Virus record (IMG/VR): IMGVR_UViG_3300013121_000020
Span: 192,001 to 256,000 of that record
DNA: 64,000 nt
Source: a virus
Lineage: Duplodnaviria > Caudoviricetes
Direction: 5' to 3' (one strand)
Shown: positions 39,575 to 53,220 of the stretch, one piece after another
Numbering within the stretch: the stretch's first letter is position 1
How the letters are laid out: the number at the start of each line of letters is the position of its first letter
Translations under genes and position numbers: made by a program
Notes under the pieces: model-generated
Told to the model about the DNA's origin: nothing
Databases searched by the model: none
The model's input: only the letters and a program-made list of their open reading frames with translations

Positions 39575-40087
39575 AATGACTCTCCACTATAATTTACCGT
39601 ATTTTTGTGGTGTGCTGCAATGAACATTATCTATACTATACACCACATTAACAGATCCCCCATAGCATGCCACAGACGGATAGTTAAAAAGTATTGATTT
39701 GATAGAGGAAGATAAATGATAGAAATCACAATCGATCGTTCAAATAAGACAATTGGCACACTTACGGAGAGATACAGCTTTGACGAGGATTGGGTCAAAT
39801 CATTGACTACATGTCGAGTATGTAAAAAGCCAATTGACGATGACGATACAGTGATCAGAGCATATAAAACACATCAAGCACAATTATGTAGTTCAAAATG
39901 CTCTCTTCAAGAAGTATGGCAGAAATATGCATGTTGTGAAAAAGCAGTTCCAACATTTTGTTCATGTGCATATTCATTAACCTGCCCCGATCATGGGGAC
40001 CGCCATGTTGGAACCCACGACTGATTCCTGATTTACTGCTGTCAGCCGCTCGCCACATAATTGTCTACCAAACAATGGGGGAATCTC

Positions 40088-41245
40088 ATGGAACACGAAT
40101 ACATTAAATCAATCGTCAGCAAAACGAAACTTGATCCGAGACCGTATCAGTTTCGAATTGTACACAAGACCAACGACATGTTCATGGGCCGATACCGCAA
40201 TGGTGCTGGTCATCTAGAACCCAACGCACGATCTGTGCTGATTGAAAGTCCAACCGGCAGCGGCAAAACCTGCATGGGCTGGTTAGTTGCCAAATGCATG
40301 CAGCAAGAAATTTCCGATCTTGCAGTTGGATGGGTCTCCATGCGCCGTCCCCTTCTCCATCAAGCAGCACTTGAGAATATGGAGAAGCAGATTGGTGTTA
40401 AGAATGTCCACATGATCAGCATGTTTAATAAAAATCCTAGCGAACTTAAAAAATCTGGTCGAAAAGTCTTGCTCGTCGTGGATGAGGCACAGCACGATGC
40501 CGCAAGTTCGATGGCACATCTCCATAACATCATCGAACCAGATTACATTCTTGGACTATCTGCAACCCCATTCAGAACAGACAGAGTCAAACTGTGTTTT
40601 GACAAAGTATTGAAAGATGCTGGTATCCACCAGCTGATTCAAGATGAATATTTGTCAAAATATGATCATTACACGGTCCCGAATTGGAATGTGGAAACGG
40701 TCACGGAGACATACCTCCGTGAACCAAAACGGTGGGGTAAGTCACTGTTCTATTTCGTTAACCTGGAGCAATGTTATCAGTGTCACCGAATCTTGTGTGA
40801 TAATGGAATTGCGGCCGATGTTGTGACCAGTCACACTGATATCGACGCACAACTATCGTCGTTTGAATCTGGTGAGACTAAAGTTCTGATCAACTGTGCG
40901 AAGCTAACAGAAGGCTTTAATGCACCAGACCTTCAAACCGTATTCGTGCGAGATTCTGGAAAAGGTTGCACCATCCAGATGGCCGGAAGAGTGTTCAGAA
41001 AACATGACAATATCAGAACGAAACAGGTCGTGCAATCAAAACTTACTCGCTGGCCAATGATCAGGACTGCGTTGCCAGAACAACAGTACATTTGGCAAGA
41101 GAATGCATGGCTAAGTTTAACTGTCAACCCAAAACTCAGTTTAATCAATAAAAATGCAAGGCTTGCCATTGCTTCTGTCGAAGTAGAACTTCCGAAATTT
41201 ATCACGATGCCGAAACAGCGGCGTCGATTTCGTGCACGCCGGTAA
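40088..41245 (+). CDS. Superfamily 2 DExH helicase
   Basis: SPTGSGKT, VVDEAQH, GLSATPFR, LTEGFNAP, QMAGRVFR. Confidence 0.9.
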   Translation: MEHEYIKSIVSKTKLDPRPYQFRIVHKTNDMFMGRYRNGAGHLEPNARSVLIESPTGSGKTCMGWLVAKCMQQEISDLAVGWVSMRRPLLHQAALENMEKQIGVKNVHMISMFNKNPSELKKSGRKVLLVVDEAQHDAASSMAHLHNIIEPDYILGLSATPFRTDRVKLCFDKVLKDAGIHQLIQDEYLSKYDHYTVPNWNVETVTETYLREPKRWGKSLFYFVNLEQCYQCHRILCDNGIAADVVTSHTDIDAQLSSFESGETKVLINCAKLTEGFNAPDLQTVFVRDSGKGCTIQMAGRVFRKHDNIRTKQVVQSKLTRWPMIRTALPEQQYIWQENAWLSLTVNPKLSLINKNARLAIASVEVELPKFITMPKQRRRFRARR

Positions 41246-41438: not shown

Positions 41439-41522
41439 GACTCTCCGGAAGTATTAACGGCTGTGGCACGCTTGCCACAAGTATATGGGACCTGGACCGA
41501 TTTTACCACATGAGGATTGCCG

Positions 41523-42713
41523 ATGACCGCCGCGATTGCCGACACCGATCTGACGTTTGATTACACCTTCATGCCGATCAGCGACCTAAAAGTTGAAACC
41601 ACCGAAGACCCAAAGACTGGTCGAAAGCGGGTCGAGAAAGTCATCGTTCAAGATGAACCACTTAAACCAACAGAACGCTTCTGGACCAGTCTTTATTCAC
41701 GGTATGGGTTCAATTCGGCATTCATGAAATATTTCGAACACGAAGAAGTGTTCGACCGAATCAGCAAGATCGAATCCAACGACCGGATGCGGCTGTGCAT
41801 CGAACGCGACAGTGCAGGAAATGGTACGCTCCTGGGTGTTAGCAACCCAAGCAAACCGATCGTTGTGTTTGATGAACTCATGGGGCTGTTGAATCGATAC
41901 AATTGTCAAGATGTGTCGTACTGCAATGGGATCGCTGAGTCGATCCACACCCCACGAATTGGCGCAAACAAATTCATGATTGGCGGTGACGAATTCATCA
42001 ACAAATTCATGATGGCAACCCCAATCGATGGTTATGGCGGACCAAGCATTTATCTCAGTCTGCTACGCATGATCTGCAGCAACGGCGTCATCGGTTATGC
42101 AAAAACATTTCGGTCTGGACTATCTCTCGGAAAGGGGGAAGACAATGTTGGTCCATCCCTCACCCGAGCGCTGGATGGTTTCAACAATGAAGAAGGATAT
42201 GCCGCACTGCGACAGCGAATGGAAAGTGCGGTAACGTCATGGGCAAGTGTTTATGAAGCAACTTGCCTCTATCGATTGGTAACCAAATTGTACAGTTCCA
42301 ACATGATCGATGATCTTGGTGGAGTAACCCCTAAAGGGGCGCACAACATCCGACAACTGATGTACTCCCCATCTGACGGGAAAATCGATGGAATCGAAGG
42401 AGTCGGGTCATTGTTGCTGCTGGCATTCCACAAGATGACCGGCGACACAAGCAAGATTTATGGTCTTGCCAATCTCGATGCGTTGTCAGTGAAGAGACAG
42501 CGCACGTTGCCGGTCAAATGCACCGTGTACGATCTGGTGAATTTTGCGACCGAAATCTCAACCCATTACGCGACACCTGCTGGGGCGCGTCAACTGCAAG
42601 CGTGGGTTGGTGGTATCGTGTCGGAAGAATTCGACATGGAAGGGACTCGCGACAAATTCGATTCGTTTGCCGATTTCCATCTGCAACAGGCAACCGATCT
42701 TGACAATGACTGA
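41523..42713 (+). CDS. DUF932-like protein
   Basis: DGYGG..LLRMICSNG motif, YDLVNFATE. Confidence 0.5.
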   Translation: MTAAIADTDLTFDYTFMPISDLKVETTEDPKTGRKRVEKVIVQDEPLKPTERFWTSLYSRYGFNSAFMKYFEHEEVFDRISKIESNDRMRLCIERDSAGNGTLLGVSNPSKPIVVFDELMGLLNRYNCQDVSYCNGIAESIHTPRIGANKFMIGGDEFINKFMMATPIDGYGGPSIYLSLLRMICSNGVIGYAKTFRSGLSLGKGEDNVGPSLTRALDGFNNEEGYAALRQRMESAVTSWASVYEATCLYRLVTKLYSSNMIDDLGGVTPKGAHNIRQLMYSPSDGKIDGIEGVGSLLLLAFHKMTGDTSKIYGLANLDALSVKRQRTLPVKCTVYDLVNFATEISTHYATPAGARQLQAWVGGIVSEEFDMEGTRDKFDSFADFHLQQATDLDND

Positions 42714-44399: not shown

Positions 44400-45615
44400 T
44401 GCACCAGTTTTTCGATGAAGGTTGATAGTGGTATTTTAAAGTGGTTCCATTAATTCAGTTTCATGGTTGGGCTGGCAAGCCACACAAAGAATGGCCAGAG
44501 GATTTGCCAGCACTTTTTGGCTCATGCTTCTGAGATTCGAAAATTAAAGTAAGCACATCTCAGAAAACCAACTCAACACAAACGACCAAGAGTTAACGAT
44601 AGTTAACTCTCTGCCACAACTGGTATGAACCGACAACCACAGAGAGAACCATGACCGCCATCCAATTAAAACAGTTCATCAACCGAATCCTTGGAATTCC
44701 AAAGTCCAAACTTCGCGCCACAAGCGGAGACCGATACTGTCACGTAACTATCATCCCAGAACGCCGACACCGACAAGATTTTAAAGAACCCATCCGTTAC
44801 GCATACCAATTCACACCGGAACTTGGGAATCGCTGCATGCGGATAGTCTATAAAGGACATGAATCGCTTTGTGCACAGAATTGGGGCGGAAACATCACCA
44901 GTCACAGCATCGCCATGCTTTCCCATGAATGGAAGGAATTGATCGAACAATATGAACATCAAAACACTGAAAACAAAATGGCGTAAACAAATTGTCAAGA
45001 AAGCCGAAAAACTTGACAAAGAATCAAACCATGGAGGCCACGACTGGCACTCCATCTGGGTCGGGTTCGTAATCGCTTTAGAGCGACCGGACCTAACCAG
45101 TCACGAAAAGTATATGGAATACGGATTCCCAGAAGAACAGAACAAACAATGAACAAATACAGGATTTCGCCATGAAAGTATGCGACATCATTAGCGTTGT
45201 GCAACGGTTCCCAGAGAATTGGGACCTGTTCAATTTAATGTGGTGGTGTGGATTAAACCACGAATACCGAACCTAACTAGTCACGAACGCCATTCTCTAT
45301 GAACACTACACCGCACCAAAACCTCAGGAAATAAAATAATGTTTTATTACTTAACTGTTAAATATGACATCCAACATCTTCAACTAAGCGGAACATCAAG
45401 ACTTCATGGGCCATTCGCAACTGAAGATCAAAGAATTTCACACTTCTTAGAGAATATTACAGAACGCGACCTCGAAACAGATGAAATCTTGAACACCACA
45501 TTTCTAACCATAAAAGAAGATAGGAGTTTAGTGCGAGAAAAGTCGTGGATCGTAAATGGAGACGACCCGCTTGATATGGGCGACTAACAACCTTATAATT
45601 ATTCAAGGAGAAATC

Positions 45616-46044
45616 ATGACAACCAAAATCAACTATGATCAAATGATAGAAGCCTGCCGACACCTATCAGAACGCAACAAAAACGGCAGCTGGCCAAAAA
45701 TCCCAGAAATCTTCGAAAAAATCCGAGAACAACACAACATCGACAAAACCGACATAAACTGGCCACTAATCGTCGAATGGATCGTCTATCAATCCGCCAT
45801 CGACTACCTCTCCCAAACCACCCTCAATTGGACAATCGTCCACGACAAAACCATCAGCTGGTGGAAAGCAGATACGCCAAACGGACCATACCTAATCTTC
45901 CGAAAACTGGAAGATCAATGGCGACACTCATGGACCGCCCCAAACCTAGACAGCGGCACCACCCTCACACTCGAAGAAGCAAAAGAAGCCGCACAACAAC
46001 ACTTTAACAACCAAACCAAAATGAACGACTCAACACCACATTAA
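45616..46044 (+). CDS. Hypothetical protein
   Basis: AAGGAG RBS; C-terminal TLEEAKEAAQQHF. Confidence 0.6.
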   Translation: MTTKINYDQMIEACRHLSERNKNGSWPKIPEIFEKIREQHNIDKTDINWPLIVEWIVYQSAIDYLSQTTLNWTIVHDKTISWWKADTPNGPYLIFRKLEDQWRHSWTAPNLDSGTTLTLEEAKEAAQQHFNNQTKMNDSTPH

Positions 46045-46101
46045 CAGCCAGACCAACCCCAGCCACACACAAGCAGAACAAGCCACCAACCGGAGAATAA
46101 A

Positions 46102-46377
46102 ATGCGGTTACAACAAACAACCCCCATCTTCGTAACCGGACAAGACGGCACCTCCAAAATGACACTCGGAGGCCTCTTCGACGCCATCGTCGGCGGCACG
46201 AAATGGGAAGATATCGAAATCACCACAGACAAAAAAGAAAGCGAGGAAAACGAAAAGAAACGCCTCGTCATCAAAAACGTCATCAAACTCGTCCAACAAA
46301 TGTCCACACACCAAGCAGAAACTATCCTCCGAGCCATCGACACACTAATCCAAAACCCACGAGAAAACAATGACTGA
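46102..46377 (+). CDS. Hypothetical protein
   Basis: GGAG RBS; motif promoter at 46041. Confidence 0.55.
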   Translation: MRLQQTTPIFVTGQDGTSKMTLGGLFDAIVGGTKWEDIEITTDKKESEENEKKRLVIKNVIKLVQQMSTHQAETILRAIDTLIQNPRENND

Positions 46378-46429
46378 AGTAAAAACCACACTCTGCACCG
46401 CGACACCACCCAAATAATATGGACCAACC

Positions 46430-47260
46430 ATGAATGACACACAACCATTCATCGACACAATCATCAACGACCCAAACGCAGACGGCCCAAAACTCGTCCT
46501 CGCAGACTGGCTAGAAGAACAAGGAGACCCACGAGCCAAATGGATACGATGGTGGCTAGGCCCACTCACAACCGCAGCAAAAACAGCCATCACAAACGCA
46601 AAACCAAAAACCAACTTCAGCTTCACCACCAAAGACCTACCACACGACCAACTACTCGGCTCACTAATCATCGACCTATCATGGCGACACATCATCATGC
46701 CAAACAACAAAACACTAGCAGAAACAGCCGACCATCACATCAACATCACAAACACAGCCGCCATCCTACGATGGCTCAACCTCATCAACCAACAACAAAT
46801 AACCACAATAACAGAACACACAACCAAAATATTAGAAAAAACAATCACAGCAAAAGACAACGCAACCATGAAATGGCACCAAGCAGCCTCAGAATGGCAC
46901 CACACACACAACCACACAACCAAACTCAACAATGCAATCGCCGCAAAAGACCACGCAACCGCAACATGGCACCAAACAACCACAATCTGGCACCAAGCAA
47001 TCGCCGCAAGAGACCAAATAGACGCACCCTGGCACCAAGTCGCCGCAACCATGAACCACATAGAAGCCGCAATGAAACAAGCAGACGCAGAATGGCACCA
47101 ACTCGCCGCAACCACAAACCAAATAAAAGCACCAGCCGCAACACTAAACCAAACAACAATAACAGGAACCAAAATACACGGCCAAATCACAGCAATATAC
47201 AAAACCGCAAAAAACCTCGCCAAAAAGACAAAACTCACCGACCCACGCAAAACCCACTAA
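46430..47260 (+). CDS. TIGR02996 domain protein with WHQ helical repeats
   Basis: FIDTIINDPNADGPKLVLADWLEEQGDPRAKWIR; repeated xxWHQ. Confidence 0.75.
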   Translation: MNDTQPFIDTIINDPNADGPKLVLADWLEEQGDPRAKWIRWWLGPLTTAAKTAITNAKPKTNFSFTTKDLPHDQLLGSLIIDLSWRHIIMPNNKTLAETADHHINITNTAAILRWLNLINQQQITTITEHTTKILEKTITAKDNATMKWHQAASEWHHTHNHTTKLNNAIAAKDHATATWHQTTTIWHQAIAARDQIDAPWHQVAATMNHIEAAMKQADAEWHQLAATTNQIKAPAATLNQTTITGTKIHGQITAIYKTAKNLAKKTKLTDPRKTH

Positions 47261-47871
47261 CCCAAACCCAACGGAAAACCAACCATAATCTTATTCTTAA
47301 AATCACCCCCAAGCCTCCGCCTATACCAACCCAACCCCGGCAACCTACCAGACGGATCACCACCCAACCACTCAATATCCTTCCCCAAAACCCGCCTCAC
47401 AACCTCAGGATCAGTCACAACATTAACACCACGACGCAACAAAACCGCCGCCAAAGCATCACTAACCTCACCATAATAACCAGAAGAACCAAAATCACCA
47501 ACCTTCCTCGACACCAACGCATCCTTCGCCACCCTCGACCCATCAGTAGCACTCGCCACACCCTTCTCCCCAAACCGCGTCAACTTACTAACAATCGTAG
47601 CATCAGCAACCCGATCATCATCAACATCAATCGCATACACCACAAACCCCCGATCCCTACACGCATCCAACAAATCACCAGAAGACCTAAAATCAACATG
47701 CCCCCCAATCCCCCCATAACTAACATCAATCAACCTAAACAACTCATCAGCCAAAGAAGGATCCGCATCAACATCACCAGGACCAACAACAACCCAACGA
47801 TCCCTCACACCAAAATGCCCAGCAAAATCCTCACCAAGCACCCGATCAAGAACAACATCAAACAACCTCAT
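47257..47871 (-). CDS. Hypothetical phage protein
   Basis: GAGG RBS before MRLFD; motifs SYxxIGGH, YxEVS, GWYxRxLGG..KIMVGxP. Confidence 0.65.
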   Translation of the reverse strand: MRLFDVVLDRVLGEDFAGHFGVRDRWVVVGPGDVDADPSLADELFRLIDVSYGGIGGHVDFRSSGDLLDACRDRGFVVYAIDVDDDRVADATIVSKLTRFGEKGVASATDGSRVAKDALVSRKVGDFGSSGYYGEVSDALAAVLLRRGVNVVTDPEVVRRVLGKDIEWLGGDPSGRLPGLGWYRRRLGGDFKNKIMVGFPLGLG

Positions 47872-47969
47872 AACACACCCCCTCTCCCCATACATTTGCC
47901 ACCACACATTTACCACACCCCCCACCCCCGCCACACACCACCACACAACCAAAAAGAAGGAGAAGAAAA

Positions 47970-48137
47970 ATGAACAACCAACAAACAAACATCGACATCG
48001 ACCAACAACTCCAACAAGAACTCCAAACCCTCCAACACCAACTCCAAACCCACCAACTCACACCATACCAACAAGAAATAACACAACAACTCATCAACGA
48101 CATAATACACACAATCAACACACAACGTATTAAATAA
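47970..48137 (+). CDS. Small Gln-rich protein (55 aa, not in the ORF track)
   Basis: AAGGAG RBS and motif promoter at 47909. Confidence 0.5.
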   Translation: MNNQQTNIDIDQQLQQELQTLQHQLQTHQLTPYQQEITQQLINDIIHTINTQRIK

Positions 48138-48419
48138 AAAACAAACACCCAAAACCAAAAAGGAACAACAAAATGGAAGACAACCCAAAATTCACCATCA
48201 ACCGCATGGACAACATCATCACAATCACCATAAACAAACCAATGGCAGAAGACATCCTAGAAATCATGGACGACTTCACAGACCTACGACCCCACGAATA
48301 CGCACTAAGAGAACAACTAAGAAACATAACCGAAGGAAAACCAGCAAAACCCACAGCAAAATTCAGCAAAACCCACTAGTACACAAATGTACCCACCACA
48401 AAACCACAAAATCCCGCAT

Positions 48420-48650
48420 ATTCCCTTGTACATTGATATATATTATACAATTGTGCCTCGTAATACGCGGTAATACCACAACGAGCGTGGGACAATTTAC
48501 ACCCATCCCACGCTCGCCACATCCCATCACTCGATCATCAACTCACCACACAAGAGGGGCGATGAGAATTGTAGATGCTGATTTTTACCCCCTGATAAGG
48601 GCTTTCTTATTCACGAAGCTACACTTCAGGAATGGGAATGTACATTGAAG
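48420..48650. other. Strand-composition switch point (candidate replication origin or genome end junction)
   Basis: + strand is A/C-dominated to the left and G/T-dominated to the right; contains an AT-rich patch and an 11-bp IR (48482-48516). Confidence 0.55.
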
Positions 48651-49121
48651 AAGGCGGTTGCACAACGTATCGATGAGTTGAAGCAGAACGATAGTATGGG
48701 AGATTCTGTTATGGTGTCTGATCCTCCTGTTTTGTTTATTGATGTTGGTGGGCGGGTTGGATATGTGGCAGTGAGTGATCTTAAGGATGCGATTGCTCTT
48801 GATGATTGGTTGATTGGTGGGTTTTTGGTGGCGAAGATGTCTTATTGCCCAGCGGAACCTGAGTTGCCGCGAGAGCCGGGTGTAGATAATGTTGTTGTGT
48901 TTCCGCAGTTAAATAGTGAAATTGGGAAGTTTTGTGCTGAGATTAGAAAGAGGTTGAAATTGTGAGTCGTCCTACTGTTTATCAGGTGGTGAAGCTTCCG
49001 AGGGTGTCTCGTAAGCCTCGGAAGCATACTGGTGTTGCGTATCGTAGGGTTGGTAGGAAGTTGGTGGTGTTTCATTTGATGGCACCTAGGATGATGTTGC
49101 GATGTTCTGAGGGGTGAAGGT

Positions 49122-49889
49122 ATGTTGATTGATTATGTTGATGGTCCTGTTGCTGGTGGTCGTCGTCCGCGTTTGTATTTTGTGCGGAATGGGGAGGTTC
49201 GTAAGTTTGCTGGTGAGTCTATTGATGGTTGGTGTGTGGTGTTGAGGAAGTGGCGTGATGATACAATGTCATCGTGTGGTACGTCGCATCTGTTTATTAT
49301 TGAACTTGCGCCGGATGTGAAGCCGTTGGAGTTGTTGTCTCCGTTGTATGGTATTTGGGGGCAGGATTTTAAGTCATGGGATGATGTGGTTTCTCATTTG
49401 CGGCTTCCGGTTGATGTTGTTCGTGGGATTGTTGGTGATGAGTATCCTGAGACTGCGGCGCGTCTTGATGAGATTGCGGCGTTTGCGAGTGTGAATGATG
49501 AGTTTGAGTTGGTGAATATTGTGTTTGGGTCTTCTGGGGATGCTAGTTTTTGGGTTGAGCCTAAGTCTGCGGTGTCGTCTTCTGGGCGGGTTGTGGTTGC
49601 TGAGTTGATTGATTGTGAGGTTGGGTGGAGGCATGGGAATGTGCGAGTTCCTGATGATTGTAAGGTTGTTGATGTGAGGTATAGTCGTGAGTGGACGGTT
49701 ATTGTTCAGGTGGCGGTTCCTGTTGGTGGTGGTGCGGATGTTGGTGAGCTTGTTCGTTGGTTGCGGTTGTTGAAGGATAGGATTGCGATTTCTGTTGTTG
49801 ATGGTGGGAAGATTTTGAGAGTGGTGAATGTTATTGAGTGTGTTAAGGATAATGCGATTATTATTACGGCAGCGCCAAATGGGTCTTGA
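49122..49889 (+). CDS. Hypothetical protein
   Basis: 255 aa, GAGG RBS; Val/Gly-rich due to the skew. Confidence 0.6.
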   Translation: MLIDYVDGPVAGGRRPRLYFVRNGEVRKFAGESIDGWCVVLRKWRDDTMSSCGTSHLFIIELAPDVKPLELLSPLYGIWGQDFKSWDDVVSHLRLPVDVVRGIVGDEYPETAARLDEIAAFASVNDEFELVNIVFGSSGDASFWVEPKSAVSSSGRVVVAELIDCEVGWRHGNVRVPDDCKVVDVRYSREWTVIVQVAVPVGGGADVGELVRWLRLLKDRIAISVVDGGKILRVVNVIECVKDNAIIITAAPNGS

Positions 49890-50370
49890 TTTCCAGGGCG
49901 GAAATCGGGTGTGTATGGGGGTGTATGATGGCTGTTACTGTTGTGGGGCAGGCTGGTGGTGGTAAGAAGGTTGTGTGTAAGAAGTGTGGGGCTGTGCTTA
50001 AGTATTGGCCTGTGGATGTGAAGTGTGTGAGAGGTTGTGATGGTGTTGGGTCTCATAAGGTGATTAAGTGTCCTAAGTGTGGTGGTAGTGTTTATGTGCG
50101 TGATTTTGGGTCGTGTTTGGATTGATGGGGTGTTGTATGAGTCCTAGTGCGAAGCGTGGGTTTGATGCGATTCAGGGTTATTTTAGTCGTGATGTGTCTG
50201 ATTTTCGCAGTCCTGGTGATTATCCTCCGAATGTGGTTGAGGCGTTGTTGAAGGATTTGGTGTGTTATTGTGATGAGTATGGTGTTGATTTTGATGGTGC
50301 TGTGAGTCGTGTGCGTGTGGGTGTTGGTCGGTGTGTTGGTGATGATGAGGTTACTGGTTTTTGATTTTTT

Positions 50371-50442
50371 GGGGCTGAAGCTCAATGGTAGAGCAGGGTG
50401 CTCATAACTCCTTGGAAGTGGGTTCGATTCCCACCGGCCCCA
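50371..50442 (+). tRNA. tRNA with CAT anticodon (Met or Ile2)
   Basis: GGGGCTG/CGGCCCC acceptor, GCTC-AATGGTA-GAGC D arm, CTCATAA loop, GTGGG-TTCGATT-CCCAC T arm; CCA not encoded. Confidence 0.9.
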
Positions 50443-52434
50443 TTCATTTCTTTTTAAATGCTGAATAGTGGATTTACGTAGTGTTTGTAGCTGGCACAAT
50501 TCTATATGGAACTTACACGCCAACAGAAATATGAGCGGAAGTCGGTTAGTGCTTTGAGGTTTTATGCTGGTCTACGTGGGCTTGGGGTTAGGCCGGTGGA
50601 TGTTGAGGGTTATCTGGGGAAGAGAGTTGGTGTTTATCAACTTACAAAGGTTGAGTTGGTCCAGCTTCATTTGAAGTTGGATGAGGCTGGTTGTGGCCTT
50701 GGAGATAATCTTTCGTAGATGAGGGGTGAGACTATGTCGCATGTTGAGCGGTGTGTTCGTTGTGGGGATGTGGCTGATGATGATGGTGGTGTTATTGATT
50801 TAGTTGATGGTATGTGTGAGTGTTGCCGTGATCATTTGGAATGGGTGGCGGTAGTGGTGTCTGATGATGTGCGTTATGGTGATTTTGATTATTCGTTGAA
50901 TTATTAATTGGAATTTGCGATGGTTTAGGTCCTGTCACAGGTGGGTTGTTCCAAGGCGGAAATCGCGTATAGGTATGATAATGTTCAAGATTGCTATTGC
51001 TTATCATTTCGTGCTCGTGGCGGTTGATCGAAGTGCGGTTGTACAAAGTCTTCGCTGTGAAGATTGATGGCGTGGAAGGGTGGGTTGGGTGTTCGCGTGG
51101 TTTGATTTATGATTACGCTTTGTATTTGCGTAAGGAAGTAGAGATTAACCATGCGTGTGTTTCAGGTGCGTGATGGTGGTGCAGATCGTGTGTCGAATGT
51201 TCGTTATTTTTGGATTGAGGAGTTTCTTGTTGGTGATGGGTGGGATGATAATCGTTTGTTGAGTAATGTGTTGCTTTTGTCTGATGATTATGTTTTTGCT
51301 AGTTTCAATGGTAAGCATTATCGTGTGTGTGAATGTTGTTTGGATGAGGATGATGAAGAGTGTTTTGTGAAGGTTTGGGAGTCTGATCCGTTTGTTGATT
51401 GTCTTCCTGAGAATATGCGGCCATTTCCTGTGTGTTGAGGGTCTGCCACAGTGGGTTGGGTGGAGATAATTGTGGAGGTAGAGTGATGAATATTAGCGTG
51501 CGTGGGAAGTCGTTGGTTGTGCCTCCTCATGAGTGTGAGCCGGTGATTGAGGTTGATGCTTCTGAGGTTGGGGAGCGTTATTCTCTTGGGGTTGGCCATA
51601 TTGATGTTATTGGTAAGGGTGGGTTGGTGTCGCGGTTTTGGATTGATGTGCGTGTGAATCCTTCTACGCATCGGCCTGAGCTTATTGTTAGGACGAAGGT
51701 TGGGTCTGAGTTGCAGGTTCAACGGGAGAAGCGGGTTCAGGGGTCGTTTAATATTACTAAATCTGCAACGTGAGATAAGATATGGTGAGAGTATTTGTAT
51801 CGCGACAGCAGGCTAAGGCGGACCTTCGCTGGCGATTTCGTCATGTCAAGAGGGGGGTTATCGCAGATGTGCATGTAAAAGGTGAGTGGCGGCGATATGG
51901 GTTTATTGATGGTATGGGGTTTTATTATGAATTAGCGCCGCCTGATGGCCAGTTTTGTGCTGTGGGTCCAGTTTAGGAGATTCATGATGACCGCGATGAT
52001 GAGAATTGTTAATGCTGTTCGTTGCAATCTTCCGAACAGTGTTAATCTTCGGGTGAATGATAGCGATGTGCAAACTGTGAATTGGTCGTATCGCGGTCAT
52101 GGTTCTTCTGATAGTCTTCGTATTGTTGATGGGCGTTTTTATGATTTTATGAGAACTGATCGTGGTCCTGCTACAGTTGATAATCTTTTTAAGATTGTCA
52201 AGGAGTGGGTTGCTGCGGTGGATGAGAGTTTTAATGATCCGCCGCCTTCTCGACGGTCTTGTAAGGTTGTTTATGTGCCCGGTGAAATTGCGGACTTGGC
52301 CGATGAGGAGTTGGGGAAGGTTTTGTCGGTGTTGCGTGCTCGCTTTCCTTTGTTGGCTGATGAAATTGATATGGATCGTGCTTGGGGTGTGGATGAAGGG
52401 TGATGTTTACGGGGGTTTGCGGCTTGCCACACGG

Positions 52435-52557
52435 AGAAGGCGTGAGACGGGGGCGTCGGTAGGGGCGATAAAGGGCAGTACCTGGGCCTTACGGAATGCT
52501 AGCGTTTGCGTTTGGCCAGCTAACCTGTGACCCGGTGTCCCTGTTTTCACGCTTTCT
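52435..52557 (+). ncRNA. Structured non-coding RNA (candidate)
   Basis: Starts just after motif promoter 52406; 5' AGAAGGCGTGAGACGGGGGCG pairs over ~21 bp with 3' TGTCCCTGTTTTCACGCTTTCT. Confidence 0.5.
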
Positions 52558-52575
52558 TGTGTGGTGGGGGTGGCG

Positions 52576-52746
52576 ATGATGTTTATGGTGTCGTGGAGCG
52601 TTGGCGGCGTGTGTGGTAATCAGAGTTTTGGGACTCGTGATGAGCGTGAGGGGTTTATTGCTGCCAATTCTTTGGGGTGGTCGTCTTTTTCGCGGTGGTG
52701 GTTTGTTGATGGGGCTGGTGTTTCTGTTCTTCATTCTGATGAGTGA
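52576..52746 (+). CDS. Small hypothetical protein (paralog of 61571..61753)
   Basis: MFMVSWSxxGxCGNQSFxTRxExxxFIA..SRWxF shared. Confidence 0.65.
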   Translation: MMFMVSWSVGGVCGNQSFGTRDEREGFIAANSLGWSSFSRWWFVDGAGVSVLHSDE

Positions 52747-52977
52747 GTTATGCCAGAAGAGACTGATGGCGATGATGTGGTTTACCGTAATGTAAAACAA
52801 TGTTCACGGTGTCAGGGTCGGGTGGATCGGTTTTGCCATAAGTTGCCCGATCATGCGACGAAGTATTTTCTTTGTCGTGATTGTGGGGCTGTTGGTGATC
52901 CGTTTTGTGGGTTGATGCAGGATTGTCGGTATAGAGATTCGTAAATTGGTGTATCGATGGCGATCCCGAAAGGGAGT

Positions 52978-53105
52978 GGGTGTTGGAGCAGGCACGGCGA
53001 CCTGCCAGACGGAGAAGGCCATCCGAGCTTTTTAGCTCGACCGATACGGGGCGACTGTTGCTCTAGGTAATGCGGTGGACCCGGTTCGACTCCGGGCAAC
53101 ACTCA
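52978..53105 (+). ncRNA. Oversized tRNA-like RNA
   Basis: GGGTGTTG/CAACACTC 8-bp acceptor, GCAGG/CCTGC D-like arm, CCCGG-TTCGACT-CCGGG T arm, ~70-nt non-canonical middle. Confidence 0.55.
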
Positions 53106-53110
53106 TGTGG

Positions 53111-53220
53111 GTGTCGTGTCGTGTCGTGTCGTGTCGTGTCGTGTCGTGTCGTGTCGTGTCGTGTCGTGTCGTGTCGTGTCGTGTCGTGTCGTGTCGTGTC
53201 GTGTCGTGTCGTGTCGTGTC
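53111..53220. repeat. Perfect microsatellite (GTGTC)22
   Basis: 22 exact 5-bp units counted. Confidence 0.95.

Follow-up and report, generated by a model that had tools for sequence, protein, structure and literature searches.

In vertebrate mitochondrial DNA, the strand-displacement model explains the strand asymmetry by C→T and A→G changes on the heavy strand while it is single-stranded, along a gradient that follows exposure; one strand is nearly saturated with G+T at silent sites, protein composition is reshaped, and the skew has the same polarity throughout the genome. Replication skews of bacterial chromosomes and plasmids switch sign at a point from which the outgoing 5'→3' strand is G+T-rich; they ordinarily measure 0.02–0.2 and define two equal replichores. 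Bubble-migration synthesis in T4 leaves long single-stranded DNA beside a break or invasion point. Comparable DNA accompanies break-induced replication, whose clusters of strand-coordinated damage are concentrated near the start and arise somatically in single events (PMC9262586). Intense G+T/A+C skews for which no mechanism is known were described in 2021 as GRINS, which are tied to gene conversion and commonest in Streptomyces (PMC8256042). GRINS are defined as duplicated regions of >500 bp and >80% identity inside a gene cluster; their mean absolute GC and TA skews exceed 0.15, are correlated and strongest at third codon positions, and can take opposite signs <1 kb apart on one strand, and the encoded proteins, shifted between Gly/Val/Cys/Trp and Pro/Thr/His/Gln, stay functional (PMC8256042).

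We analyzed a 64,000-nt window from the 354-kb genome of an uncultured huge phage; positions are those of the window unless given as genome positions. The plus strand is A+C-rich at 45.6–48.4 kb and G+T-rich at 48.6–53.1 kb. Two extremes singled out by the initial annotation were recovered on recounting, 6 G+T in 60 nt at 48001–48060 and 53 in 60 nt at 50281–50340; in 60-nt windows elsewhere in the 354-kb genome, skewed zones excluded, the count ranges from 9 to 52 and is nowhere as extreme. The left arm (45556–48379; plus-strand G+T 0.21–0.30) carries genes on both strands, five plus and one minus, and the right arm (48645–53110; G+T 0.67–0.74) carries 13 small plus-strand genes and a tRNA-Met gene. 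Left of ~48.5 kb, GC skew is as low as −0.68 and AT skew as high as +0.70; to the right they are +0.63 and −0.42.

The bias in the island is 92–100% at codon position 3 vs 57–75% at positions 1–2; computed without ATG and TGG codons, it reaches 98.5–100% at third positions adjoining the switch. Synonymous sites are the most strongly biased, the opposite of what would be seen if amino-acid composition explained the skew. That position 3 is far more biased than positions 1–2 marks the island as a product of evolution under purifying selection. An assembly, base-calling or chemical-conversion artifact, which nothing besides the oddness of the sequence suggests, would strike all codon positions equally; intact reading frames, Shine-Dalgarno sites, tRNA, and protein homology also speak against it, as does the recurrence of the pattern in four independent assemblies, leaving this explanation a practically negligible chance. 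Encoded proteins are reshaped, as had been proposed: from the left to the right arm, Thr changes from 12.9 to 1.9%, Val from 1.6 to 14.1%, Gly from 2.6 to 10.3%, and Cys from 0.2 to 3.2%. The shifts are 3- to 16-fold, with Val, Gly, and Cys up and Thr, Asn, and Gln down.

The bias had also been described as decaying with distance from the switch. This holds for the left arm, which is graded (0.37, 0.08, 0.015, 0); gene by gene towards the switch, the third-position K (G or T) fraction is 0.08, 0.08, 0.015, 0.00, 0.04, and 0.00. Smooth fading does not hold for the right arm, where third-position bias varies gene by gene (72–98.6%) and then drops in a step, from about 0.85 to about 0.6, at a perfect (GTGTC)22 tract (53111–53220, plus strand); past 53.1 kb it is only 58–64%. 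The arms are thus asymmetric, the left being short and the right having a long, weak G+T tail that runs on as a genome-wide sawtooth. Outside the island, third-position G+T of the plus strand exceeds 0.5 over ~320 of the 354 kb in both gene orientations, and A+C-rich plus strand totals only ~15 kb. The sawtooth, which is not a square wave, is a feature of island genomes and was found also in the related phages G001 and G004. A second G+T zone (genome 277.1–280.4 kb) starts sharply at a distance of 36.6 kb from the switch, is flanked on its left by weak A+C, and consists of 60-nt tandem repeats with a 64–79% match; at genome 279.8–280.4 kb the bias is graded within one gene.

The island signature matches published GRINS. 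Its skews (0.68 and 0.70) change sign jointly and lie above 0.15, and the third-position maximum is accompanied by the Gly/Val/Cys vs Thr/His/Gln shift. Unlike GRINS, the main island does not occur a second time in the assembly: when all zone proteins were searched against the genome by tblastn, the only hits were the proteins themselves and one 54% paralog, and the second zone alone approaches the duplication definition. The phage island is, moreover, bipolar and occurs once per genome; its polarity is fixed, and its tail extends genome-wide. It shares silent-site saturation and reshaped proteins with vertebrate mitochondrial DNA, but has two mirror arms of 3–5 kb plus a weak sawtooth instead of a whole-genome skew. 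As at replication origins, the sign switches at a point and the outgoing strand is G+T-rich, but the skew is ~0.6–0.7 locally and forms no square wave. Concentration of a strand-coordinated effect near a start recalls break-induced replication clusters; the island differs in being a fixed evolutionary equilibrium.

The skew changes sign within a non-coding region (48380–48644) that carries TGTACATTGA at either edge and contains an AT-rich patch and a hairpin with an 11-bp stem (48482–48516, plus strand); its single-strand fold has z = −3.97 against shuffles. The hairpin overlaps a rightward-pointing copy of a regulon motif, TTTACA-N14-GCCACA (48496–48521, plus strand), the two together spanning 48482–48521. 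The general motif, TTDACN-N14-GCCACA, is absent from the island regions of G001 and G004 and is therefore not the cause of the skew. To the left lie plus-strand genes for a helicase (40061–41245) and a 398-aa protein (41517–42713), a pair of syntenic anchors 5.8 kb from the switch. No terminase was found by a PF03237 search, nor a pac signal; the contig ends overlap by 100–199 bp.

Genes of both orientations are biased alike, as had been noted. The plus-strand gene at 46430–47260, which encodes a TIGR02996 domain (E 8.5e-12, above the curated cut-off) followed by WHQ-type repeats, has four third-position exceptions in ~265 codons. In the same A+C zone, the real minus-strand gene at 47257–47871 has a G+T-rich sense strand, with A or C at 0 of 203 third positions; a 62%-identical homolog of its product, P0002, is encoded on an unskewed contig of 61% GC and was the only one that the metagenome scan recovered, twice. 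Two small plus-strand genes with Shine-Dalgarno sites (47970–48137 and 48173–48379) have A+C-rich sense strands, the latter without exception in 67 third positions. In the right arm, the product of 49122–49889 belongs to a family with 66 homologs, of which those located lie in unskewed DNA of 58–66% GC, and the tRNA-Met gene (50370–50443, plus strand) retains the A and C that its structure requires. No DNA match to the region was found in the phage collection, and single-protein searches of IMG/VR for related loci found none.

Because real genes of both strands carry the same bias, transcription does not set it, and the proposal of a localized strand-specific process is supported in a transcription-independent form. 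In transcription-coupled damage, R-loops or strong transcription diverging from the switch would leave the non-template strand exposed; the rightward regulon promoter at the switch, the plus orientation of every right-arm gene, and the firing of the final regulon promoter (genome 277,074) into the second G+T zone speak for it. However, the sense strands of all five real plus-strand genes in the left arm are A+C-rich, as is that of a minus-strand gene within the G+T arm of G001; ~45 other promoter copies lack extreme downstream skew, and no leftward promoter was found, sigma-70 and terminator scans giving chance-level hits only. Such damage is an extremely unlikely source of the island.

The same pattern is present in relatives: the present genome (G000) and three related huge phages, G001, G004, and G006, each contain exactly one bipolar island, with the polarity 5'-AC|GT-3' in 4/4, and the complete relatives G002 and G003 contain none. 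G006 is partly syntenic, with homologs of the helicase and the 398-aa protein (54% and 49% identity) 4.6 kb left of its switch; its island centers on 500 bp of AT-rich DNA with TTGCAATTGCA repeats. In G001, flips at 183.2 and 197.5 kb bracket a high-GC block; G004 and G006 showed no second same-polarity site. Gene content is wholly different, and no homology was found between zone genes of different island genomes. The skewed blocks could have been imported ready-made from a skewed donor, or strands of G+T or A+C only could be selected directly, for example through loss of palindromic restriction sites or hairpins; palindromes are impossible in a strand of G and T only, the boundaries at 45.6 and 53.1 kb are sharp, and the block at genome 232–280 kb has foreign-looking GC. 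Against this, one island per genome recurs with constant polarity and partial synteny despite the different genes, gradients of bias run across genes and inside the gene in the second zone, homologs elsewhere are unskewed, and the selection required per silent site would be implausibly strong. We consider import or selection very unlikely.

The initial annotation noted that the polarity fits a bidirectional origin. The stated polarity is supported, the skew switching sign with the outgoing strand G+T-rich; ordinary two-replichore replication is not supported, as the genome lacks opposite skews of its two halves with a switch at a terminus. The two processes that the annotation put forward, long-lived single-stranded DNA at an origin and processed ends joined by the assembly, are both possible. 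In one reading, the switch would be an origin of replication or some other point where strand-displacement synthesis begins, and the displaced strand, running 5'→3' outward and long single-stranded, would be deaminated (C→U, A→hypoxanthine); NucS would merely clear the symmetric double-strand background, so that single-strand asymmetry dominates. Several features suit this. The polarity is that of known origins, with a G+T-rich leading strand. The center is non-coding, AT-rich, and well-folding, with a promoter in a hairpin, and that of G006 is AT-rich with repeats; the helicase pair lies 5–6 kb from the switch in two genomes. The linear genome-wide fall of third-position G+T resembles a gradient of time spent single-stranded, and residual third-position exceptions on the G+T-rich strand are mostly A, not C, A being the slower-deaminating base. 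Ortholog comparison gave 96 C>T and 39 A>G vs 0 T>C and 6 G>A.

Deamination alone nevertheless does not explain why islands accompany NucS (below), and a square-wave replichore pattern is missing. At codon positions 1–2, A/C→G/T transversions are in excess (34 vs 7), which multiple hits could mimic. Spontaneous adenine deamination is too slow to deplete A to 0–2% within the minutes of exposure per infection. PF00383 (deaminase) is absent from the genome, and the sole deaminase-like ORF (HAE..PCxxC; 72455–72877, minus strand) has no Pfam match and no homolog in five relatives and thus cannot explain a shared feature. The ortholog and repeat substitution counts fit deamination and repair-based bias alike and do not separate them. 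Overall, an origin with single-strand deamination is the main rival to the reading preferred below, and somewhat less probable than it.

A repair or gene-conversion bias, which the initial annotation did not envisage any more than the likeness to GRINS, could produce the effect in place of base damage. Among 430 ORFs compared, two follow island presence, having a homolog in all three island-bearing relatives and none in two island-free ones: a cpYpsA protein and a NucS/EndoMS homolog (genome 313768–314394, minus strand; Pfam NucS_N 1.2e-9 and NucS_C 1.1e-14, both above cut-off). The NucS product matches PDB entries 2vld (E 1.1e-35) and 5gke (E 8e-30), and D138, E151, and K153, corresponding to the catalytic Asp and Glu-x-Lys, are invariant across four phage homologs. 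From these matches we predict a mismatch endonuclease with N-terminal PH-like and C-terminal RecB-like nuclease domains, resembling known EndoMS/NucS in both domains and the catalytic D-E-K (PMC6159521, PMC4838380, PMC11551744). The complete genomes G002, G003, and G005 lack NucS, so that the association comprises four island and three island-free genomes, all related to each other. The only cultured virus with a NucS homolog, the archaeal virus HGTV-1, has no island, which indicates that NucS is not sufficient. No island was seen in NucS-positive partial contigs, which are only 8–64% complete, and K-run scans of partial contigs returned mostly G/T-only microsatellites.

EndoMS/NucS is otherwise known as a fidelity factor of Archaea and Actinobacteria, the latter including Streptomyces. 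Actinobacteria conserve the enzyme (PMC8228993); NucS is not mentioned in the GRINS paper (PMC8256042), and our literature search found no paper that joins "intense nucleotide skews" with NucS/EndoMS. EndoMS cuts G/T, G/G, and T/T but spares C/A (PMC6159521), a specificity on the same keto/amino axis as the phage skew, and in vivo G-T and G-G mispairs of the incoming strand are lost and those containing A or C kept (PMC11551744).

Our preferred reading, with a probability of roughly 40%, is that the island marks a DNA end or break of fixed position, at which heteroduplex correction biased by NucS drives A/C→G/T changes on the non-invading strand. The drive would act in situ on the strand that leaves the landmark at 48,380–48,644 in the 5'→3' direction. 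This landmark may be a pac-type first packaging cut or a terminal-repeat edge that was assembled through. Ordinary 5'→3' resection there would expose the 3'-ended strand on either side, and this strand would invade sister or co-infecting genomes and prime recombination-dependent replication. In the resulting heteroduplex, phage NucS/EndoMS would reject G/T, G/G, and T/T mismatches and tolerate those containing A or C, so that A/C→G/T changes on the incoming strand would be erased and G/T→A/C, A↔C, and G↔T changes let through. Over many generations, the invading strand would come to hold only A+C at free sites, and its complement only G+T. The outcome would be strong biased gene conversion, with 5'-AC|GT-3' on both strands, fading with tract length and dragging amino-acid composition along.

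The polarity predicted from canonical resection is the one observed, and silent-site saturation for both A and C, indifference to gene direction, the co-occurrence of NucS with islands, and the ties of GRINS to gene conversion and to Streptomyces also count for an end with NucS-biased correction; the asymmetric arms and sawtooth tail fit ends spread downstream of a pac site. The island itself, its constant polarity, its single occurrence per genome, the partial synteny, and the co-occurrence with NucS are observed; that the landmark is an end or break, and NucS the source of the bias, we infer. Counting against this, the residual A exceptions suit deamination kinetics at least as well, the AT-rich center with its hairpin, promoter, and nearby helicase looks like an origin, and the NucS association comes from few, related genomes, to which HGTV-1 and the failure to find a terminase or pac signal must be added. 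Alternatively, a low-fidelity PolA-like polymerase could re-synthesize a few kb outward, G·T mispairs enriching the nascent strand in G and T. Polarity suits nascent strands diverging from the site, and mutagenesis by Pol I at ColE1 fades with distance from ori. The gene for the 417-aa PolA-domain protein of this phage has counterparts in all five relatives tested, and DnaE-type polymerases favor G/T mispairs (PMC6159521). This gene is also present, however, in the island-free G002, G003, and G005, NucS would take out exactly those mispairs, and a few-fold mispair asymmetry cannot reach >98% saturation; we regard this source as unlikely.

Whichever process is at work, the shared mark probably records the processing of DNA ends or replication starts, possibly with involvement of NucS. 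More tentatively still, GRINS-type keto/amino skews, here and perhaps generally, might be written by NucS/EndoMS-biased heteroduplex correction and not by base damage: a habitually incoming strand would drift to A+C and its partner to G+T, and a fixed end would leave a bipolar 5'-AC|GT-3' scar, which in these phages would also serve as a mutational hot zone where early genes evolve fast. The phages amount to a clean natural experiment, with one fixed-polarity island per genome, close relatives with and without it, and one candidate gene acting on the G,T-vs-A,C axis. If the switch is an origin with deamination, the islands show where replication starts and imply that single-stranded DNA persists there for unusually long. 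If NucS-biased correction is responsible, prokaryotes and viruses would have a biased gene conversion of a new kind, one that explains GRINS, allows fixed ends or starts of recombination to be recognized from sequence alone in uncultured phages, and shows a repair enzyme able to recode proteins locally.

The initial annotation had singled out two 60-nt segments with 6 and 53 G+T; recounting shows both numbers to be correct, and such counts are unmatched anywhere in the genome outside the skewed zones. The skew also flips near 48.5 kb, as had been proposed: over about 48.4-48.6 kb, GC skew rises from -0.68 to +0.63 while AT skew drops from +0.70 to -0.42, which separates an A+C-rich left arm (45.6-48.4 kb) from a G+T-rich right arm (48.6-53.1 kb) on the + strand. 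The non-coding switch between the arms (48,380-48,644) is AT-rich, contains a hairpin, and folds better than shuffled sequences. The skew shows a three-base periodicity, with G+T fractions at codon positions 1, 2, and 3 of 0.68, 0.57, and 0.96 in gene 49122-49889(+) and 0.33, 0.30, and 0.08 in gene 46430-47260(+). When ATG and TGG codons are left out, third-position exceptions in the genes flanking the switch amount to 0-1.5% (0/203 and 0/67 codons); along the right arm, the third-position bias of individual genes is scattered between 0.72 and 0.99. An artefact is hardly compatible with the sparing of codon positions 1 and 2, reading frames, ribosome-binding sites, and a tRNA. Protein composition tracks the bias: Thr makes up 12.9 vs 1.9% and Val 1.6 vs 14.1% of residues, in line with the reshaping of proteins claimed earlier. 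The observation is confirmed, and the bias arose in evolution under purifying selection. Long perfect microsatellites consisting of G and T alone, such as (GTGTC)22, (GGTGTT)n, (GGTTGT)n, and (GGT)n, are a recurrent feature of the phage clade (window 53111-53220; related genomes or contigs G006 at 189-198 kb, G007 at 134.8 kb, G012 at 24.25 kb, G027, and G028), and contigs of the clade sometimes terminate within them.

Because chance gives long ORFs on either strand of skewed DNA, real genes were chosen by homology. Gene 46430-47260(+) encodes a TIGR02996 domain scoring over the curated cut-off, and 47257-47871(-) has a homologue at 62% identity. As both are within the A+C zone, their sense strands are A+C-rich and G+T-rich, respectively; the bias is indeed independent of gene direction. 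Two more + strand genes with Shine-Dalgarno sites are located between 47257-47871(-) and the switch, and a related phage, G001, has a minus-strand gene within its G+T arm. The homologue of 47257-47871 resides on a 61% GC contig that lacks skew and bears the same promoter motif as the window. For the 255-aa protein encoded by 49122-49889, there are 66 homologues, and those that could be located lie in unskewed DNA of 58-66% GC. Sense-strand differences between the relative and the window gene comprise 96 C>T, 39 A>G, no T>C, and 6 G>A, and A/C-to-G/T transversions are likewise in excess. Judged from these sequence comparisons, the island genes were not skewed from birth. The name of the TIGR02996 'repeat-companion' domain derives from Gemmata, a possible clue to the host or to where these genes came from.

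The window stems from a single viral contig of 354,091 bp, whose ends overlap by 100-199 bp and which was therefore assembled as a circle. It belongs to a T4-like huge phage, whose capsid gene is of the Gp23 type. Its GC content is 38.7% overall, with a block at 44-60% GC (genome ~232-280 kb; window 40,000 onward) set within DNA of 36-38% GC. Genes of this block have homologues in metagenomic DNA of 58-66% GC, and comparable high-GC blocks adjoin the islands in three relatives, G001, G004, and G006. The block carries the regulon motif TTDACN-N14-GCCACA in ~48 copies, all rightward (window 28,102-63,795 and on to genome 277,074). In many copies the spacer folds into a 6-bp hairpin (GGCGGG..CCCGCC), and in some it resembles a tRNA T-arm (GGTTCGAATCC); the motif also lies upstream of genes on contig L002, which is unrelated and has 61% GC. 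Elsewhere, a 417-aa family-A polymerase-like protein (genome 35,592-36,845 (+), L097:688-1941; Pfam 39.4 bits, barely over the cut-off) is kept in 5/5 relatives tested. A small ORF (genome 72,455-72,877 (-), L098:455-877) contains a deaminase-like HAE...PCxxC motif, with no Pfam match and no homologue among five relatives.

An IMG/VR search with the capsid protein yielded 151 relatives at 76-95% identity. Islands were sought as 40-nt G/T runs allowing up to 3 exceptions, and five whole genomes were then retrieved. Exactly one bipolar island each is present in the genome under study (G000) and in G001 (408 kb), G004 (371 kb), and G006 (275 kb, 70% complete). No bipolar island exists in the complete genomes G002 and G003, and the run scan of the complete genome G005 gave only one short T-rich match. 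In all four islands A+C precedes G+T, an order that survives reverse complementation, so each strand reads 5'-AC|GT-3'. Gene content is unrelated from island to island, and the centers are non-coding and 250-500 bp long, with TTGCAATTGCA repeats in G006. A helicase and a 398-aa protein are located 5.8 kb left of the switch in G000 and 4.6 kb left of it in G006. The exact island center of G004, between the arms, holds an unskewed gene of 65% GC (L090 11,440-12,100; G004 345.4-346.1 kb). This gene and the scatter in the right arm suggest gene turnover in the zone, with the drive hitting whatever lies there.

A second G+T zone lies beyond the window, at genome 277.1-280.4 kb, where the + strand is 73-80% G+T and third positions reach 96-99%. 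It starts abruptly just past the last regulon promoter, spans an 840-codon minus-strand gene of 60-nt repeats whose sense strand is A+C-rich, and tapers off within the following gene. Copies of the 60-nt repeat differ mainly by G<->T. Immediately left of this zone, in DNA of 57-60% GC, a three-promoter regulon cluster is present twice, ~1,020 bp apart (L001 7,838-7,968 and 8,857-8,990; genome 275,838-275,968 and 276,858-276,988), which looks like a recent tandem duplication. Far from both main zones, G+T is 66% over 1.6 kb (genome 84.9-86.5 kb) within a large + strand gene, 83,020-86,892.

Third-position G+T of the G000 + strand is >0.5 nearly everywhere, for genes of either orientation, and is reversed only at about 225-240.5 kb. 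With each genome rotated to start at its own switch, it peaks immediately right of the switch and declines around the circle, with slopes of -0.023 per 100 kb in both G001 (rho -0.41, p 4e-18) and G004 (rho -0.34, p 2e-10), a similar gradient in G006, and a weaker one in G000; G002 and G003 are flat. The pattern is a sawtooth and not a two-replichore square wave. The reading in the initial annotation is partly supported: transcription-independent strand bias agrees with the genes on both strands, but the two replichores expected of a bidirectional origin are not seen. An origin at the switch whose displaced strands are deaminated would still account for the polarity, the origin-like center, the sawtooth, the synteny of the helicase, and the predominance of A over C among residual exceptions. 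We rate it the main rival explanation, somewhat less probable than the one favored below; adenine deamination seems too slow to bring A down to 0-2% within exposures lasting minutes.

Only 2 of the 430 ORFs of G000 are common to G001, G004, and G006 yet absent from G002 and G003. One encodes a circularly permuted YpsA (cpYpsA) SLOG protein (genome 131,657-132,340 (-), L189:1157-1840; Pfam E 3.8e-30), which has the same presence/absence pattern as the other over six genomes. The other (genome 313768-314394 (-)) encodes a NucS/EndoMS endonuclease, a candidate factor for the bias, with both Pfam domains, a match to PDB 2vld (E 1e-35), and conserved D-E-K residues; it is missing from the complete genome G005 too. 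The association with islands compares 4 vs 3 genomes, all related. Deamination at an origin leaves it unexplained unless NucS only strips a symmetric background. Among cultured viruses, only the archaeal virus HGTV-1 has a NucS homologue, and it has no island, so NucS alone is insufficient. That homologue (L201 31,623-35,687), annotated as a RecB-like nuclease, adjoins a Holliday-junction resolvase in a recombination module, with RadA and another PD-(D/E)XK nuclease close by.

EndoMS cuts G/T, G/G, and T/T mispairs and leaves C/A uncut (PMC6159521). In Mycobacterium smegmatis, G-T and G-G mispairs are removed from the incoming single strand by short-patch repair and A/C-containing ones are retained (PMC11551744). 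On a strand that is habitually the incoming one, such an activity would erase A/C-to-G/T changes and tolerate every other change, so that this strand would drift to A+C and the complementary one to G+T. With canonical resection of a fixed end or break, invasion on either side would be by the 3'-ended strand, which predicts exactly the observed polarity. Ends scattered downstream of a pac site would leave the upstream arm short and produce a long, weak tail downstream, as is seen. We assign this end-anchored, NucS-biased conversion a probability of about 0.4.

The island's signature matches GRINS, for which the published description gives no mechanism (PMC8256042), in its correlated GC and TA skews, third-position maximum, amino-acid shift, and adjacent opposite signs. 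It differs in duplication, on which the main island falls outside the GRINS definition, whereas the second zone comes near it. A survey of huge phages mentions ordinary GC skew only, and 'intense nucleotide skews' and NucS/EndoMS are combined in no paper found in the literature searched. The NucS and deamination models predict opposite exposed strands, the 3'-ended A+C strand and the 5'-outgoing G+T strand, respectively, and are therefore separable by experiment.
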